Below are positions 6,275 to 17,879 of a stretch of 64,000 nucleotides of DNA, piece by piece. The position numbers and the translations under genes are program-made. The stretch comes from Candidatus Omnitrophota bacterium (lineage in GTDB: Bacteria > Omnitrophota > Gorgyraeia > Gygaellales > Profunditerraquicolaceae). The stretch lies in the NCBI GenBank assembly GCA_029571225.1, contig JAKPTF010000097.1, positions 417 through 64,416 on the forward strand, in the 5' to 3' direction. Positions within the stretch are counted from its first letter, which is position 1; each line of letters starts with the position of its first letter. The notes beneath the pieces are model-generated. The model did not search any database and was not told where the DNA came from. It was given only the letters and a program-made list of their open reading frames with translations.

Positions 6275-6308
6275 CAGAGGCGCCAATATTAAATTTTAAA
6301 AATAGTTG

Positions 6309-6336
6309 TTGACAAAGAATGGATCAATGGTATACT
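6309..6336 (+). promoter_or_regulatory. Sigma70-type promoter of the cold-shock gene
   Basis: TTGACA (6309-6314), 16-nt spacer, TGG-TATACT extended -10 (6328-6336). Confidence 0.7.
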
Positions 6337-6354
6337 TGATTTCAGTAGTGAGTA

Positions 6355-6409
6355 AAGATTAGAAGTCAGTAGCCGAAAAGCTTATGATGTCTAGCCTTTC
6401 GGCTTTTTT
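6355..6409 (+). promoter_or_regulatory. csp 5' leader element: AAGATTAG box plus terminator-like hairpin
   Basis: AAGATTAG at 6355-6362. Hairpin agccgaaaagc/gcctttcggct (6371-6404, one mismatch, 12-nt loop) followed by TTTTTTGTT. It lies between the promoter and the RBS (GAAGGAGG). Confidence 0.55.
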
Positions 6410-6457
6410 GTTGACGGCTTTATTCACTAAAATTCAAGAAGAAGGAGGTAGTGAGCA

Positions 6458-6658
6458 ATGGTTAAGGGAAAAGTAAAGTGGTTCTCGAACGAAAAAGGCT
6501 ACGGTTTTATTACTCCTGAAAACGGTAATGATGTCTTCGTGCATCATAGCGTGATTCAGGGTGAGGGATATAAGACGCTTGCCGAAGGACAGGAAGTTGA
6601 ACTGGAAATAGTTCAGGGTCCGAAGGGCGAACAGGCCTCGAAAGTCGTAAAGCTCTAA
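6458..6658 (+). CDS. cspA: Cold-shock protein (CspA family)
   Basis: 66 aa. RNP1 KGYGFI and RNP2 VFVHHS motifs with a full CSD layout. Confidence 0.95.
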
Positions 6659-6788: not shown

Positions 6789-8483
6789 ATGCTTAATTTT
6801 ATAAAGCGTAAATACGATTATTTCATAGGGTTTACCGCGCTTGTGGCGTTTGCGCTTCTGCTCATCGAGAATTCGGCGTATGTCAGGCCGTACGCGTTCC
6901 TGATAGGAGAGATCAACCTTACGGTAACCCTTATTTTCGTCAGCGACATCCTTCTTCGTTTCTTCGCCGCCCGCGATAAGAAAACGCACCTTTCCCGCAA
7001 CTGGTTGGATCTGATTGTTTTTATTCCGTTCATCCAGCTCATCAGGGGTCTGGAGAATACCGCCGCATTTGTCATCATACGCCAGATTGTCATCATCTTG
7101 ATTCTTTTGTCCCGGATACGCAAATCTACCAGGCTGCTCAATCTGCTCAGCCTCAAACCGGCGCAGATGATGATTGCGACTTTCGCTTTCGCCATCGGCG
7201 TAGGCGCCGTGCTTTTGATGCTGCCTGTCGCTACGAGGACGGGCGTCAGGACATCGTTGACCGACGCGCTGTTCACCGCGACTTCGGCCACGTGCGTCAC
7301 CGGTTTGACCGTTAAGGATACTGCCGTGCATTTCAGCCTGTTCGGCCAGATCGTGATACTTGCACTCATACAGGTCGGGGGTCTGGGTATTATGACGTTT
7401 TCGGTATCCATGGCCCTGATCATGGGCAAGAACATGGACATGAAGCAGCAGGTGGTTATGTCGGATATCCTCGATGAAAGCTCGCTTGCCCGGGTCAAGC
7501 ACATGGTGACGTATATCCTGAAAATGACGCTTTTTTGCGAGGCAGCCGGAGCAGCGTTATTGTTCGCATCGTGGATCGGCAGGACCGGAGGAGTGGTGAA
7601 GACGGCGTATTATTCCGTGTTTCACGCGGTATCAGCATTCTGCAACGCCGGGTTCTCAACTTTCAGCAACAATCTGGTCAGGTTTCATGACGATGTATCC
7701 ACGAATCTTGTCATTTGCGCGCTTATCGTCGTAGGCGGGCTCGGTTTCACGGTTATAAAGGATCTCCACGATAATCTGAATATACGGTTCGATTTTTCGA
7801 TAAGGCGCAAGGTCAAGCTGAAAATGCATACGAAGGTGGCCGTTTTGATGTCCGCAGCTCTCATTATTCTGGGCGCGGCCGCATTCTATCTCCTCGAAAA
7901 GGACGCGCTTTTCGCCGGATACGATCTCAAAGGCCGCGTGTTGTCGTCCCTGTTCCAGTCGGTAACCGCCAGGACAGCGGGGTTCAATACGTGCAGTATA
8001 GCCGGTCTCTCCGGCACATCCTTGCTTGTTATGATGATACTGATGTTTATCGGCGGCTCTCCCGGTTCAACCGCAGGCGGCGTCAAGACGACGACGGTGT
8101 CCGTGCTGTTATCCACGATCATCAGCGAATTTCAGGGTAAGGATAATACCGAGATATTCAGGCGGACGATCTCTCCTGCCCTCATAAAAAAAGCGATGAT
8201 TATCTTTTCGGTGTCCAGCATCCTCGTCGTGGCGTTTGCCGCTGGTTTACTCATGGTGGAGCACAAACAATTCCTGCCTGTTGTTTTTGAATCGGTGAGC
8301 GCCTTCGGCACGGTCGGCCTGTCCGCTGACCTGACCCAGGCGTTGAGCGGCAGAGGCAAGCTTTTGATCACAGTGCTCATGTTCATCGGCAGGCTGGGCC
8401 CGTTGACCGTCGGTTACGCGTTCCTGCGGCGCCACCGCCAGCCGCGGTACGAATACGCCCGGGAGAACCTTGCCATCGGATAA
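6789..8483 (+). CDS. ktrB: KtrB/TrkH-family K+ transporter with an N-terminal ~115-aa four-helix voltage-sensor-like extension
   Basis: The core carries the TrkH/KtrB signature (LFTATSATCVTGL, AFCNAGFS, TARTAGFN, SAFGTVGLS selectivity-filter-like repeats). The N-terminus resembles S1-S4 of the ion_trans family (IFVSDILLRFFAARDKK, NWLDLIVFIPF, IIRQIVIILILLSRIRKSTRLL). Confidence 0.85.
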   Translation: MLNFIKRKYDYFIGFTALVAFALLLIENSAYVRPYAFLIGEINLTVTLIFVSDILLRFFAARDKKTHLSRNWLDLIVFIPFIQLIRGLENTAAFVIIRQIVIILILLSRIRKSTRLLNLLSLKPAQMMIATFAFAIGVGAVLLMLPVATRTGVRTSLTDALFTATSATCVTGLTVKDTAVHFSLFGQIVILALIQVGGLGIMTFSVSMALIMGKNMDMKQQVVMSDILDESSLARVKHMVTYILKMTLFCEAAGAALLFASWIGRTGGVVKTAYYSVFHAVSAFCNAGFSTFSNNLVRFHDDVSTNLVICALIVVGGLGFTVIKDLHDNLNIRFDFSIRRKVKLKMHTKVAVLMSAALIILGAAAFYLLEKDALFAGYDLKGRVLSSLFQSVTARTAGFNTCSIAGLSGTSLLVMMILMFIGGSPGSTAGGVKTTTVSVLLSTIISEFQGKDNTEIFRRTISPALIKKAMIIFSVSSILVVAFAAGLLMVEHKQFLPVVFESVSAFGTVGLSADLTQALSGRGKLLITVLMFIGRLGPLTVGYAFLRRHRQPRYEYARENLAIG

Positions 8484-11769: not shown

Positions 11770-11785
11770 TAAACACGAATACATG

Positions 11786-11813
11786 TTGACAAAACAGGTA
11801 TCGGTGCTATACT
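11786..11813 (+). promoter_or_regulatory. Sigma70-type promoter of the DEAD-box helicase gene
   Basis: TTGACA (11786-11791), 16-nt spacer, TGC-TATACT extended -10 (11805-11813). Nearly the same core as the csp promoter. Confidence 0.7.
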
Positions 11814-11832
11814 TATACCATCTGCAGAGAAG

Positions 11833-11890
11833 AAGATTAGTAATCGTAAAACCGTAAAGGTTAGATAACTAACTTTTACGGTTTTTGTTT
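11833..11890 (+). promoter_or_regulatory. Helicase 5' leader element: AAGATTAG box plus terminator-like hairpin
   Basis: AAGATTAG at 11833-11840. Hairpin aaaccgtaaagg/cttttacggttt (11849-11884, one G.U, 12-nt loop) running into TTTTTGTTTTTT. The RBS AAGGAG follows at 11904-11909. Confidence 0.55.
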
Positions 11891-11916
11891 TTTCACAGAC
11901 CACAAGGAGAACCCAG

Positions 11917-13215
11917 TTGAATACCGCAGGACATCCGCAGCAAGTAACGCCTCAGCCGTCTAGTTTTTACGGCCTTGGCATCGCGCCCAAGATACTTGAG
12001 ATACTAGAGCGCATAAAATTCAAGGTGCCGACGCCGATTCAGCAGAAAGCCATCCCTCCGGCCATACAGGGCAAAGATGTCATCGGCATCGCGCAGACCG
12101 GCACCGGAAAGACCCATGCGTTTGCCATACCCATGGTGCAGCAACTGGCGCAGAAGCAGGGAGTCGGGCTGGTGCTTGCGCCGACACGGGAACTTGCCAT
12201 CCAGATCGAAGAGGCGTTCCGCGCAATTGCCGCGCCGTTCGGCATGAAGACTGCGTGCCTTATCGGAGGGGCGCCAATGTTCGATCAGACTGTTGCCCTG
12301 CGCAGGGGCCCGCGTATCGTCATTGCTACCCCCGGGCGCCTCATAGACCATATGTCGCAATGGAATTTCATGCCCGAAGAGGTTTGCATGCTGGTCCTCG
12401 ACGAAGCTGACCGGATGCTTGACATGGGGTTTGCCCCGCAGATCGACAAAATCCTGAAATTCATCCCGAAGAACAGGCAGACCATGCTTTTCTCCGCGAC
12501 CATGCCGAAAGAAATCATGGAAATGGCATCGAAGAACATGAAATTGCCGGTGTGCGTTGAGATCGCCCCGCAGGGCACTGCGGCCGAGACGGTCACGCAG
12601 GAGCTGTATATCGTCAAACGGGAAGCCAAAGCCAAATTGCTCGGAAAGATACTGGCACAGTATCACGGGCCTATCCTTTTATTTACTCGGACTAAAATCG
12701 GCGCGCGCAAAGTCACCAGGGCTATACAGGCAATGGGGTATAAGGCGGCTGAGATCCATTCCAACCGGTCGCTGACGCAGCGCCGCGAGGCGCTTGAGGG
12801 ATTCAAACGGGGTTTATACCGCGTGCTTGTCGCAACGGACATCGCCTCCCGGGGCATAGACGTCACGGGCATAGAGCTTGTCATTAATTATGATCTTCCG
12901 GAAGACGCGGGCAATTACGTGCATCGTATCGGCCGCACCGGCCGTGCAGGCCTGAAGGGCCGCGCCATATCCATCGCGACCCCTGACCAGAAAACCGACG
13001 TTAGGGATATTGAAAAATTGATCAGGGCATCCCTGCCTGTGATCAAGCATCCGGATTTCCCTGTCGAGCAGTTCTCCGAGCAAGCGGTACAAAATGCCGG
13101 AGGCCACCGAGTGTCACACAGGCCGGGATCGTTCCGCCATCAGGCAAGCAGAAAGCTTGCAAACAGCCATTCCCATCAGCAGGGGCGTTCAAGACCCCAG
13201 ATATATAAAAAATAA
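11917..13215 (+). CDS. DEAD-box ATP-dependent RNA helicase (RhlE/CshA-like)
   Basis: TTG start 7 nt after AAGGAG. Q-motif (FKVPTPIQQKAIP), AQTGTGKT, PTRELA, DEAD (VLDEADRM), SAT, and HRIGRTGRAG. Basic C-terminal tail. Confidence 0.92.
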   Translation: MNTAGHPQQVTPQPSSFYGLGIAPKILEILERIKFKVPTPIQQKAIPPAIQGKDVIGIAQTGTGKTHAFAIPMVQQLAQKQGVGLVLAPTRELAIQIEEAFRAIAAPFGMKTACLIGGAPMFDQTVALRRGPRIVIATPGRLIDHMSQWNFMPEEVCMLVLDEADRMLDMGFAPQIDKILKFIPKNRQTMLFSATMPKEIMEMASKNMKLPVCVEIAPQGTAAETVTQELYIVKREAKAKLLGKILAQYHGPILLFTRTKIGARKVTRAIQAMGYKAAEIHSNRSLTQRREALEGFKRGLYRVLVATDIASRGIDVTGIELVINYDLPEDAGNYVHRIGRTGRAGLKGRAISIATPDQKTDVRDIEKLIRASLPVIKHPDFPVEQFSEQAVQNAGGHRVSHRPGSFRHQASRKLANSHSHQQGRSRPQIYKK

Positions 13216-13236: not shown

Positions 13237-13264
13237 CCGGTCTGCGTAAGACCGGTTTTTTTTT
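13237..13264 (+). terminator. Intrinsic terminator of the helicase gene
   Basis: Stem ccggtct/agaccgg with loop gcgta, followed by T9. Confidence 0.75.
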
Positions 13265-13318: not shown

Positions 13319-13347
13319 TTGACATGAAAAGTATGATTTATTATACT
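13319..13347 (+). promoter_or_regulatory. Promoter of the AbrB-like/efflux operon
   Basis: TTGACA (13319-13324), 17-nt spacer, TATACT (13342-13347). Confidence 0.65.
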
Positions 13348-13387: not shown

Positions 13388-13624
13388 ATGGAGAAAACAT
13401 CGCCTTTACTCAAAGTTTACGGAACCGTGACCGTAGGGGAACGCGGGCAGGTGGTGGTGCCGGCAAAAATACGCAAGATGTACGGTTTGAGCCCAGGGGA
13501 TAAATTGATTGTGCTTGCCAGAGAAGGCGCGCCGATCGGGTTTGTGCCTGTTTCCGCATTCAATGCGTTCATAGAACAGCATGAGCAGTTTATAACTCAG
13601 ATGAAAAAGAATACCGGAGCCTGA
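13388..13624 (+). CDS. AbrB/MazE/SpoVT-family DNA-binding protein
   Basis: VTVGERGQVVVPAKIRKMYGLSPGDKLIV is the swapped-hairpin SpoVT-AbrB motif. ATG at 13388 follows GGGAGG. Confidence 0.75.
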   Translation: MEKTSPLLKVYGTVTVGERGQVVVPAKIRKMYGLSPGDKLIVLAREGAPIGFVPVSAFNAFIEQHEQFITQMKKNTGA

Positions 13625-13629
13625 TTGCA

Positions 13630-15911: not shown

Positions 15912-17879
15912 ATGATAGAGATCAAAAACGTCCATAAGACATATATCATGGGAAGTTCACAGGTGAAGGCCCTTGACGGCGTATCCTTGAAGATAGATCC
16001 GGGGGAATTCATCGCGATCATGGGGCCTTCGGGTTCAGGCAAATCCACGCTTATGCACGTGCTGGGCCTCCTTGACCGGCCTGATTCCGGCGAATACCGC
16101 CTCCGGGGCAGGGAAGTCACTACGTTATCCGATGAGGAGCTTGCGGTTGTGCGCAACAGCCTTATCGGTTTTGTATTCCAGCAATTCCACCTGCTGCCGC
16201 GTATGTCCGCGCTGGAGAACGCTGAATTGCCGCTCATCTACGCAGGGAAAAGGCATTTGCGTCTGCGGGCGGAGGAAGAGCTGGCGGCGGTCGGACTCAG
16301 GGATAGGATACTCCATAAGCCTACCGAATTGTCCGGCGGCCAACAGCAGCGCGTGGCCATCGCACGCGCGCTGGTCAACGACCCTGTTATCCTTTTCGCG
16401 GACGAGCCTACCGGAAATCTCGATTCAAAAAGCAAAGATGAGATCATGGGTATCCTTAAAGGGCTCAATGCCAGAGGCAAGACCGTGGTGGTGGTTACCC
16501 ATGAGCATGAGATTGCCGCGCAGGCGTGCCGCGTCATACATATGCGGGACGGCAGGATCGTTTCCGATGAGCGGACGTCCTTGGAAAAGGCCGTCGGCCG
16601 CTGCGGCCCTGGCGGCGAGCGGCATGTCAACGATGTACTTATCGAGCACCGCAGCGCTTCGGGAAAGATAAAATTCATCGATTACGTGCGCCAGGCAATG
16701 TCCGCGATGGTATCGCACAAGATGCGTTCCCTGCTCTCTATACTGGGGATCCTTATCGGCGTTGCGGCGGTTATCGCGATGCTGGCCCTGGGAAGCGGCG
16801 CAAAAGCGTCTATCGGGCAGCAATTAGCGTCTCTTGGATCTAATCTTCTGTGGGTGCATGCGTCTCACGCTCGGTCGCGGGGGGTTTCGGTCCAGGCGAC
16901 GGAGACACGTTTCACTATTAAGGATGTCGATATGATCGCCGGCCTTGCGTCGGTAAAGAGGGTCTATGGATCCGTATCGAGCAGGGGCCAGGTTGTGTTC
17001 GGGAACCGGAATTCCAACACGCAGATCGAAGGGGTCGGCGTAGATTACGCCCCGATGCGCGCATCCGTCCCTGCTGTAGGCAGGTTCTTCACCGAGCAGG
17101 AGCTCCGCAACAAGGAAAAGGTTGCGGTGCTCGGAACGACCGTTGTCAATAACCTGTTCGGCAGCGCGAATCCGGTAGGGGAAAACATCAAGATAAATCT
17201 GATAAACTTTAAAATTATAGGGATACTGCCCATGAAGGGGGGCGGCGGGTTCCGTGACCAGGATGACGTCGTCATCATCCCGCTGACAACGGCCATGTAC
17301 CGGGTCCTCGGTAAACAGTATATCGATTCGATCTATGCTGAGGCGGTCGATACGGGTTCCGTGCAGGCGGCGCAGGAAGAGATAACCGCTGCAATCATAA
17401 AACAGCACCGGTTGACCGGCAAGAACATCGAGGATGCATTCGACATAAGAAACATGTCGGATATCAAAAGTACGCTGGAATCCACCATGCAGACATTATC
17501 GATGCTTCTGGGCTCCATCGCCGCGATTTCGCTTCTGGTCGGTGGCATCGGCATCATGAACATCATGCTCGTCTCCGTGACCGAGCGCACGCGCGAGATC
17601 GGCCTGCGCAAGGCGATTGGCGCCAGTAACAGGGATATCATGGTGCAGTTCCTGATTGAATCGGTGCTCATGTCCTTAATCGGAGGCATAACCGGCATAG
17701 GTATTGGCGCGGGCGCATCCTGGGTTATGTATCTAATGGCCGGGTGGGCAGTCAGAGTGTCTGCCTCATCGGTTTTCCTGGCGACAACATTTTCTCTCGT
17801 CGTCGGCGTCGTTTTCGGTTTGTGGCCGGCGCAAAAAGCCTCACAGCTCAATCCAATCGAAGCCCTCAGGTATGAATGA
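15912..17879 (+). CDS. macB: MacB-type ABC transporter (fused ATPase + FtsX permease)
   Basis: GPSGSGKST, LSGGQQQRVAIARAL and FADEPTGNLD are followed by a 4-TM FtsX-type permease with a large periplasmic loop. 655 aa. Confidence 0.9.
   Translation: MIEIKNVHKTYIMGSSQVKALDGVSLKIDPGEFIAIMGPSGSGKSTLMHVLGLLDRPDSGEYRLRGREVTTLSDEELAVVRNSLIGFVFQQFHLLPRMSALENAELPLIYAGKRHLRLRAEEELAAVGLRDRILHKPTELSGGQQQRVAIARALVNDPVILFADEPTGNLDSKSKDEIMGILKGLNARGKTVVVVTHEHEIAAQACRVIHMRDGRIVSDERTSLEKAVGRCGPGGERHVNDVLIEHRSASGKIKFIDYVRQAMSAMVSHKMRSLLSILGILIGVAAVIAMLALGSGAKASIGQQLASLGSNLLWVHASHARSRGVSVQATETRFTIKDVDMIAGLASVKRVYGSVSSRGQVVFGNRNSNTQIEGVGVDYAPMRASVPAVGRFFTEQELRNKEKVAVLGTTVVNNLFGSANPVGENIKINLINFKIIGILPMKGGGGFRDQDDVVIIPLTTAMYRVLGKQYIDSIYAEAVDTGSVQAAQEEITAAIIKQHRLTGKNIEDAFDIRNMSDIKSTLESTMQTLSMLLGSIAAISLLVGGIGIMNIMLVSVTERTREIGLRKAIGASNRDIMVQFLIESVLMSLIGGITGIGIGAGASWVMYLMAGWAVRVSASSVFLATTFSLVVGVVFGLWPAQKASQLNPIEALRYE

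Follow-up and report, generated by a model that had tools for sequence, protein, structure and literature searches.

A conserved leader RNA with a predicted intrinsic terminator precedes csp and DEAD-box helicase genes in Omnitrophota and is a candidate attenuator of RNA-chaperone genes

Attenuation of cold-shock genes is a known concept, but one that involves Rho in enterobacteria. In Escherichia coli and Salmonella, the cspA, cspB, cspG and deaD leaders are sites of premature Rho-dependent termination at 37 °C, which is relieved when the RNA is restructured in the cold (Delaleau et al., 2024, as cited in PMC12360218). According to the same citation, CspA binding restores termination for cspA, cspB and cspG; the mechanism at deaD is given there as undetermined. 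DeaD autoregulates via Rho-dependent termination in its own 5' untranslated region (UTR) (PMC7430678), and Bacillus subtilis CspB and CspD favour termination (PMC8307031). Here, we describe a leader RNA encoded in a 64,000-nucleotide stretch of DNA from a Candidatus Omnitrophota bacterium (contig JAKPTF010000097.1; hereafter, the window). A csp gene and a DEAD-box helicase gene in the window both start with a copy of this conserved leader, which is ~60 nt long and consists of a 9-nt box followed by a terminator. The leader is probably an on/off termination switch outside Rfam. With moderate confidence, we interpret it as a terminator/antiterminator attenuator of an RNA-chaperone regulon, for which we infer cold and Csp/helicase feedback.

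The Rho-dependent cold-shock leader switches of E. coli are the closest counterpart. In the accounts cited above, the E. coli and Salmonella switches (cspA, cspB, cspG, nsrR-rnr and deaD) act on the same gene set, namely csp paralogues and a cold-shock DEAD-box helicase. The control point, premature termination in the 5' leader, is also the same, as is the proposed logic; cold blocks termination and Csp restores it. Conversely, the leaders described in those accounts exceed 150 nt and use Rho with Rut sites, whereas the Omnitrophota leader is ~60 nt and has a predicted intrinsic terminator with a U-run. In sequence, neither its box nor its antiterminator pairing is related to the E. coli elements. 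The cspA-family 5' UTR thermometers (RF01766; cspG, cspI and lpxP, PMC13271884) are likewise cis-acting csp leaders with alternative folds, and the action of CspE on lpxP is a precedent for the involvement of a Csp chaperone (PMC13271884). However, those thermometers act on translation and mRNA stability over a UTR of about 160 nt, whereas the Omnitrophota element is built around a terminator. All RNA thermometers known in 2016 regulated translation initiation (PMC4914106). Hence, a naturally cold-responsive intrinsic terminator would still be unusual. The cold-shock boxes in the B. subtilis cspB and cspC 5' UTRs are likewise short conserved boxes among the cold-shock leaders of one lineage, and mutations in them change csp expression (PMC8307031). 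Those boxes differ in sequence and lineage, and neither a box-plus-terminator architecture nor an extension to a helicase is described in that paper.

What appears to be new is an intrinsic-terminator RNA family, with a predicted antiterminator that pairs the 3' arm, in an uncultured phylum. We searched the literature for a leader motif of Omnitrophota csp or helicase genes and found none described. No Rfam model matched anywhere in the window at its gathering threshold, and at E <= 10 only noise fell on the two leaders. In ten related loci, Rfam returned only rRNA and sub-threshold cspA matches. The latter, to the cspA thermoregulator RF01766, scored 45.7 and 25.5 bits against the 78 required; they lie away from the motif, are probably csp coding sequence and were rejected. 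The E. coli cold box was also rejected; no UGACGUACAGA-like 11-mer with up to two mismatches occurs in 6300-6460 or 11780-11920, and the total for the window is at chance.

At both genes, the elements stand in the order promoter, box AAGATTAG, hairpin with T-run and ribosome binding site (RBS), and the order of promoter, box, terminator and RBS is the same in the related copies described below. Coordinates are listed in Table 1. The original prediction had claimed this shared order, and every element that it named is present. It had also put the box 20 nt after the -10 element at the helicase and 19 nt at csp; counted from the -10 hexamer, the spacings are 19 and 18 nt, so that only the 1-nt difference stands. 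The helicase hairpin had been described as 12 bp with a 12-nt loop (11849-11884). The hairpin is real, but this size was conservative, since the RNAfold structure has 17 bp and a 4-nt loop (-20.6 kcal/mol, z = -5.2; none of 200 shuffles was as stable). A terminator scan also flagged the hairpin and T-run. The two strings said to follow the boxes had been swapped; AAGATTAGTAATCG... belongs to the helicase and AAGATTAGAAGTCAG... to csp.

The AAGATTAG 8-mer by itself is not enriched. It occurs three times in the window against 1.44 expected, 17 of 100 shuffles reach three copies, and the third copy (16840-16847, minus strand) has no flanking promoter, hairpin or T-run. We therefore rejected the 8-mer as a stand-alone genome-wide signal, since it is at chance frequency in the window. 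The composite motif behaves differently. Both TTGACAAA-N-TATACTT and AAGATTAG-N20-40-CTARCYTTT occur twice, with 0.00 expected in each case. Thus, the suggestion that a motif at random frequency would count against the leader applies to the 8-mer and not to the composite, which, unlike the 8-mer, is a usable genome-wide signal as judged from these pattern counts. In an unfiltered scan of the window, the family covariance model R1 matched the helicase leader with 62.9 bits (E = 1.3e-9) and the csp leader with 46.6 bits (E = 1.3e-6). There were no further copies on the modelled strand of the window; the next matches were reverse-strand echoes of the two palindromic hairpins and then noise.

The leader recurs in related genomes. 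A protein-anchored scan of GTDB genomes with the window helicase gave 23 loci, nearly all in Omnitrophota metagenome-assembled genomes (MAGs), at 65-86% protein identity. Twelve of these loci contain the leader (14 matches, E <= 5e-5) and 11 do not, among them the one labelled Elusimicrobia. All 14 strong matches precede csp, the helicase, or an open reading frame (ORF) of ~50 codons, rich in Cys and His, that precedes the helicase in most relatives. One further candidate (L006:5528, 28.6 bits) directly follows a stop codon, has no recognisable box and was not counted. We also scanned metagenomes by RNA pattern alone (AGATTAG-N20-40-CTARCCTTTNCGGNTTTTT), making no use of gene identity, and obtained at least 120 stretches. 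Together with the genome loci and the window, these make 134 distinct copies among the matches listed.

A gene from one of six classes lies downstream of 127 of these 134 listed copies. As the first gene within 700 nt, we found the small Cys/His ORF (with the helicase usually next) in 77 copies; a canonical csp (Csp1) in 27; a divergent cold-shock domain (CSD) protein, Csp2 (MHTGKIKK…GFGFISD…), in 11; the helicase itself in eight; an NMO/FabK-like gene in two; and a second small ORF, zinc-ribbon-like, in two. The remaining seven have no recognised downstream gene, but in five of these the contig ends less than 100 nt further on, and in a sixth after 181 nt. Because gene identity was not used in the scan, this association suggests that the motif defines a small RNA-chaperone regulon. 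The leader was found only in Omnitrophota-labelled genomes and unassigned metagenome contigs, the taxonomy being that of the labelled MAGs. Hence, the original prediction that csp and helicase share a lineage-specific, previously undescribed leader, from which a small regulon could be defined, agrees with the 12 of 23 orthologue loci, the metagenome stretches and the searches of Rfam and the literature. The covariance-model scan that it had proposed recovers the two window sites and the 14 strong matches.

The consensus runs promoter, AAAAGATTAG, AAAATCTTAA, GCCGTAAAGG, AAGACAA, CTAA, CCTTTGCGGC and T6-8. AGATTAG is invariant in the alignment, and the two positions before it are A or G in nearly all sequences. 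For the metagenome copies, the invariance of the box and of the 3' arm is partly circular, AGATTAG and CTARCCTTT having been prescribed by the search pattern. In the 14 protein-anchored copies, the conservation is the same.

The hairpin and U-run between promoter and RBS have the anatomy expected of an intrinsic terminator. We derived structure statistics from a MAFFT alignment of 125 copies, using shuffle controls that retain phylogenetic relatedness. In the terminator stem, 91% of cells are paired, and every copy continues into U4-8. Pair 31:58, for example, is UA in 42 sequences, CG in 36, UG in 23 and GC in five. Alignment cells changed on both sides of a pair number 59, against 5.4 in shuffles, and none of 500 shuffles reaches 59. 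When the 3' partner is slid, pairing falls to 31-59%.

Among unpaired blocks, conservation is highest in the box, AAAGAUUAG, and in CUAACCUUU, which comprises the loop end and the first half of the terminator 3' arm. The two blocks are complementary at 8 of 9 positions. In the 125 sequences, the box:CUAACCUUU columns are 98.9% paired, and RNAalifold chooses this helix as the consensus. Every variant retains a pair; A to G gives G.U, and CUAA to CUAG gives U.G. The central A.C mismatch is never repaired, and the one variant box, AGUUUAG in L010, is still mismatched there. The pairing is extended in csp-type leaders and in the two leaders of the window, where an inner helix joins the nucleotides that follow the box to the 5' portion of the loop. 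The sequence of this helix differs by lineage (UCUU:AAGA, AACUU:AAGUU, AUCGC:GCGAU, GUCUA:UAGAU and UCUUA:UAGGA; UUAGUaAUC:GAUaACUAA in the window helicase). Since the resulting hairpin loops out the terminator 5' arm apically and uses CCUUU, it cannot coexist with the terminator and would thus be an antiterminator. In many copies the looped-out arm contains CC-GNRA-GG, which could cap the antiterminator as a mini-hairpin.

Support for the alternative fold is clearest in the 26 Csp1 leaders, for which we assessed the fold as a whole in a MAFFT alignment not fitted to structure. It is 87.9% paired, compared with 81.8 +/- 0.9% in shuffles; 17 cells are changed on both sides, compared with 7.3; and the covariation score is 0.215, compared with 0.127. 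None of 500 shuffles matches any of these values. Pairs 16:40, 18:38 and 19:37 covary, as do the columns equivalent to strand b of the window csp leader. Slid controls are 21-52% paired. At the window helicase, the antiterminator helix is the minimum free energy (MFE) structure of the nascent RNA at 4-37 °C, and the L003 orthologue retains it with a U-A to U.G change.

This arrangement resembles that of classical attenuators (trp, pyr, bgl/sac and riboswitch platforms), which also have a promoter-proximal terminator, an upstream complement of one arm and mutually exclusive helices. In some classes, a third hairpin sequesters the antiterminator strand, a feature that some Omnitrophota leaders may share. 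However, classical antiterminators pair the 5' arm, whereas that of the Omnitrophota leader would pair the terminator 3' arm and loop out the 5' arm. The Omnitrophota leader also differs in having no leader peptide and no known ligand or binding protein, and the regulated genes encode RNA chaperones.

The attenuator reading starts from features established at the sequence level: conservation, a predicted promoter-proximal terminator, complementarity of the box, with a mutually exclusive fold as its consequence, and a specific link to Csp and helicase genes. A strong σ70 promoter would start an RNA with the box AAAGAUUAG near its 5' end. About 10 variable nt would then precede the terminator, with (R)CCGNAAAGG, a loop ending in CUAR, CCUUUNCGG(Y) and U6-8. 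The RBS follows too closely for a second promoter to fit in between, and so the gene should be expressed only if RNA polymerase reads through the terminator. Pairing of the box with CUAACCUUU, by 8 bp and the conserved A.C mismatch, would form a long hairpin, extended by the inner helix where this is present. The terminator 5' arm would be kept in the apical loop and the terminator excluded. Being AU-rich and weakened by the mismatch, the antiterminator may form first during transcription and live longer in the cold, which would permit read-through. The switch would be kinetic, as the antiterminator must be displaced before polymerase leaves the U-run. Accumulating Csp and helicase may speed conversion to the stable terminator fold, giving negative feedback, and the leader would then report the RNA-folding and RNA-chaperone status of the cell. 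Judging by gene content and the E. coli precedent, the input is probably cold-dependent RNA folding with Csp/helicase feedback. A narrower version, in which the intrinsic-terminator switch senses cold independently of protein, with a weak antiterminator trapped kinetically in the cold and the trap resolved by the chaperones under its control, we offer only tentatively. If true, a single ~60-nt RNA would sense RNA misfolding and, in an uncultured phylum, define the entire cold-shock regulon. The small Cys/His protein would then belong to that regulon, either as a new cold-shock factor or as the trans-acting partner of the switch.

Folding calculations are in part consistent with this order of events. 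For RNA ending at CCUUU, the antiterminator is the MFE structure in five of six representative types, both window leaders included. For RNA ending at CUAR, the UUAG:CUAR probability is about 0.9 in Csp1 leaders and about 0.7 in leaders directly preceding the helicase. The window csp leader is bistable, with the antiterminator at -13.8 and the terminator at -14.1 kcal/mol at 37 °C. At 15 °C, the values are -25.6 and -21.9 kcal/mol, and the antiterminator is favoured below about 30 °C. This is the only leader with a thermodynamic crossover, and an equilibrium RNA thermometer was therefore rejected as a general model.

Several observations weigh against the attenuator reading. In most sequences, the complete leader favours the terminator by about 10 kcal/mol at 4-45 °C with no crossover, so that any thermosensing must be kinetic. 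In small-ORF leaders, the commonest class, and in Csp2 leaders, a local hairpin, AAGAUU:AAUCUU, is predicted to capture the box, which keeps the UUAG:CUAR probability in nascent RNA below 0.05. This hairpin could act as an anti-antiterminator. On these predictions, the antiterminator model is not uniform across leader classes. The box:CUAACCUUU helix lacks two-sided covariation, because both strands are invariant, and strict conservation of a single-stranded 9-mer is equally expected of a protein-binding site. Over all 125 sequences in MAFFT columns, 63% of inner-helix cells are paired, and the observed values were reached in 10 and 31 of 500 shuffles. Swapping its partners gave p of about 0.06 for Csp1 and DEAD leaders, 0.035 for all leaders and 0.38 for the small-ORF class. 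As isolated duplexes, real partners beat cross partners when all sequences were used (0 of 5000 permutations) but no longer did so with nine single-linkage cluster representatives. Constrained hairpin energies at 37 °C gave p = 0.39, most energies being 0. Finally, read-through, cold induction and protein feedback are all steps that we infer.

Our main rival explanation is an attenuator operated by protein, in which the box, and possibly CUAACCUUU, binds a specific RNA-binding protein, like PyrR, TRAP or LicT, and temperature has no direct role. We consider it rather unlikely, although it is compatible with the antiterminator model and the two are not exclusive. The protein could be Csp itself or the small, basic Cys/His protein. 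Conservation of the 9-nt single-stranded box does not depend on its predicted structural context, and in many small-ORF leaders the box lies at the extreme RNA 5' end, 7 nt after the -10 element. It is also tandemly duplicated in two loci, as ATATTAG-AGATTAG (L008:7198-7211) and AGATTAG-AATAA-AGATTAG (L013:464-482). A tandem box is not explained by the pairing model and would make more sense if the box also served as a binding site. Strand b in csp leaders (GUCUU) resembles the pyrimidine-rich heptamers preferred by B. subtilis CspB, which may also favour a protein. The commonest downstream gene, moreover, is the Lys/Arg-rich Cys/His ORF without a Pfam family, but this ORF is missing from the window even though both leaders are present. 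A protein site alone would not predict that 8 of the 9 box positions can pair with the second invariant block.

Alternatively, there may be no switch. The leader would then be a constitutively leaky terminator, a stabilising 5' stem-loop, a terminator for the upstream operon or a trans-acting RNA of 60-75 nt, with the box as a processing, stability or seed element. That both window leaders follow same-strand ORFs without their own terminator, that the terminator fold dominates thermodynamically and that helix P0 of the csp leader (see below) would build a stable 5' domain in full-length mRNA are all in keeping with this. However, the order of promoter, box, terminator and gene is kept whatever lies upstream, and the tight tie to one functional gene class argues for regulation over a generic terminator. 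The terminator-arm sequence and CUAA are conserved beyond the needs of a plain hairpin, and csp leaders show covariation in the inner helix of the alternative fold. We regard an unregulated leader as improbable. A small-molecule riboswitch, with the box, loop and CUAA region as a compact aptamer controlling the terminator, is very improbable. It would suit the size of ~45 nt with a terminator expression platform, which resembles small riboswitch classes, and the several invariant unpaired nucleotides. Yet the downstream genes encode RNA chaperones rather than enzymes or transporters of one metabolite, no conserved multi-helix junction or pseudoknot exists beyond the two mutually exclusive hairpins, and no Rfam riboswitch model gives even a weak relevant match. 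Chance resemblance, that is, two near-consensus promoters each with an unrelated hairpin, could draw on the chance frequency of AAGATTAG and on a third consensus promoter in the window that has neither box nor hairpin. It is refuted by the composite motif (2 against 0.00 expected) and by its recurrence, next to the same kinds of gene, in more than 130 distinct sequences.

For an uncultured phylum, the motif provides a sequence-defined regulon of two Csp types, a DEAD-box helicase, a small zinc-finger-like protein and FabK-like genes. It is also a cheap annotation route to probable stress and RNA-chaperone genes in Omnitrophota MAGs. The attenuator reading suggests that termination-based control of csp and helicase arose independently of the enterobacterial Rho switches, here with an intrinsic terminator. 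If the independent origin is true, cold-shock circuits would use premature termination as a general design. Being short and self-contained, the element can be tested directly in vitro. If temperature-responsive, the leader could serve as a compact cold-inducible transcriptional part.

Table 1. Features of the csp and helicase leaders in the window.
Feature	Position	Strand	Sequence and remarks
csp promoter	6309-6336	+	-35 TTGACA 6309-6314; 16-nt spacer; TG 6328-6329; -10 TATACT 6331-6336
csp helix P0, 5' strand	6346-6357	+	UAGUGAGUAAAG; overlaps first 4 nt of box (AAAG); pairs 6418-6429
csp box	6354-6362	+	AAAGATTAG (8-mer AAGATTAG 6355-6362); complementary to 6391-6399; proposed antiterminator 5' strand a
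csp inner antiterminator strand b (predicted)	6365-6368	+	GUCA; pairs UGAU 6385-6388; nascent-RNA MFE
csp intrinsic terminator (predicted)	6372-6409	+	GCCGAAAAGC 6372-6381, loop, GCCTTTCGGC 6394-6403, T6 6404-6409; 10-bp stem
csp a' strand	6391-6399	+	CTAGCCTTT; complementary to box; overlaps terminator 3' arm
csp helix P0, 3' strand	6418-6429	+	CTTTATTCACTA; 3' of U-run
csp RBS	6441-6448	+	GAAGGAGG
csp gene	6458-6658	+	Pfam CSD; ORF list
helicase promoter	11786-11813	+	-35 TTGACA 11786-11791; 16-nt spacer; TG 11805-11806; -10 TATACT 11808-11813
helicase box	11832-11840	+	GAAGATTAG (family consensus AAAGATTAG; 8-mer AAGATTAG 11833-11840); within covariance-model match 11830-11891
helicase antiterminator 5' strand (predicted)	11837-11845	+	UUAGUAAUC; pairs GAUAACUAA 11864-11872, 8 bp and one A.A mismatch
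helicase intrinsic terminator (predicted)	11848-11893	+	17-bp hairpin 11848-11885 (arms ACCGTAAAGG / CTTTTACGGT); TTTTTGTTTTTT 11882-11893
helicase a' strand	11869-11877	+	CTAACTTTT; complementary to box; overlaps terminator 3' arm
helicase RBS	11904-11909	+	AAGGAG
helicase gene	11917-13215	+	RhlE-like DEAD-box helicase; Pfam

The csp gene has an ATG start and encodes 66 aa with a single CSD (PF00313, E = 1.1e-27). The helicase gene has a TTG start and encodes 432 aa with DEAD (PF00270, E = 2.5e-50) and Helicase_C (PF00271, E = 1.7e-27) domains. An identical protein is annotated on the Candidatus Omnitrophota MAG GCA_035419745.1 (contig DAOLTP010000005). The best homologues are all from Omnitrophota and are annotated as RhlE or DEAD/DEAH box helicase. 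From U-run to start codon, the distance is 23 nt at the helicase and 48 nt at csp. In L003, from the closest relative (86% identity), a direct duplication of ~44 nt (…GGCGCAATACCACGTCAGCGCCAGCCATGTGCCGGAGGGCACAT… twice; 7873-7990) lies between the leader terminator and the helicase start.

Both promoters are of the σ70 extended -10 type, with 11 of 12 consensus positions, a 16-nt spacer and TG, and a near-consensus promoter lies 5' of the box in almost all related copies. The likeness of the csp and helicase promoters largely reflects that both are near-consensus extended -10 promoters. Same-strand ORFs end just 5' of each leader; they encode a YfiO-like lipoprotein (to 6274) and a multihaem cytochrome (to 11769). 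The terminator scan of the window found no terminator of their own between these ORFs and the leader promoters and so the leader terminator may also end upstream transcripts.

The MFE fold of the whole csp leader contains helix P0, which pairs the start of the box region with sequence beyond the U-run. About half of the 26 Csp1 leaders have an equivalent GUAGUAAAUAA:UUAUUUACUA pairing with compensatory differences (L003, L004, L008, L030, L032, L063, L071, L116, L129 and L136 are among the relatives that bear it). In csp-type leaders, the 3' strand UUAUUUACUA is located 7-12 nt after the U-run. Because this strand is downstream of the U-run, P0 can form only in read-through transcripts. Its role may be to stabilise the 5' end of the mRNA or to lock the leader once polymerase has read through.

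The small Cys/His ORF, found at L005-L013 and about 85 metagenome loci (e.g. L006:7836-7988, L096 and L127), encodes ~50 aa rich in Lys and Arg (MKKVKTSHKGRKCKFPHCKHILSIYNHExYCHVHL…) and stands between leader and helicase in most relatives. It has no Pfam family, the best match being zf-TAZ at E = 0.022, below threshold, and was not found in the window. From its sequence, the protein could be an unrecognised cold-shock or RNA-binding zinc protein, or the trans-acting factor of the switch. In one subtype of small-ORF leader (e.g. L005, L011, L012, L028 and L073), the terminator has GCCGCCAAGG as its 5' arm and a C.U mismatch in its stem, and we saw no sign of an inner antiterminator helix. The box in this subtype starts exactly 7 nt after TATAAT and so should be the very 5' end of the transcript.

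Csp2 (MHTGKIKKVVRERGFGFISDTDGREVFFHQ…, 68 aa, Pfam CSD E = 1e-18) carries the leader at L023, L043, L047, L056, L060, L081, L094, L097, L118, L124 and L145, and often stands in tandem with a canonical csp. It is not in the window, where the sole tblastn match is the canonical csp at 40% identity. The NMO/FabK-like gene follows the leader at L083:6536 and L139:11207, and follows Csp2 in one locus. Its first 60 aa match PF03060 (E = 1.7e-10). The gene would link the regulon to fatty-acid and membrane adaptation if the enzyme is enoyl-ACP reductase II. The zinc-ribbon-like small ORF (MHSCMRCGNKLQHNYLVTFFKVTKEKRERMIVCLRCRDILKQQ…) follows the leader at L075:2322 and L132:902 and has only sub-threshold Pfam matches.

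The third near-consensus promoter in the window (TTGACA-17-TATACT, 13319-13347), which has no box or leader hairpin, is directly 3' of the helicase terminator (13237-13255 and T9). Behind it are a 78-aa MazE/AbrB-type (PF04014) ORF at 13389-13625 and then an OEP/RND/MacB-type efflux operon.

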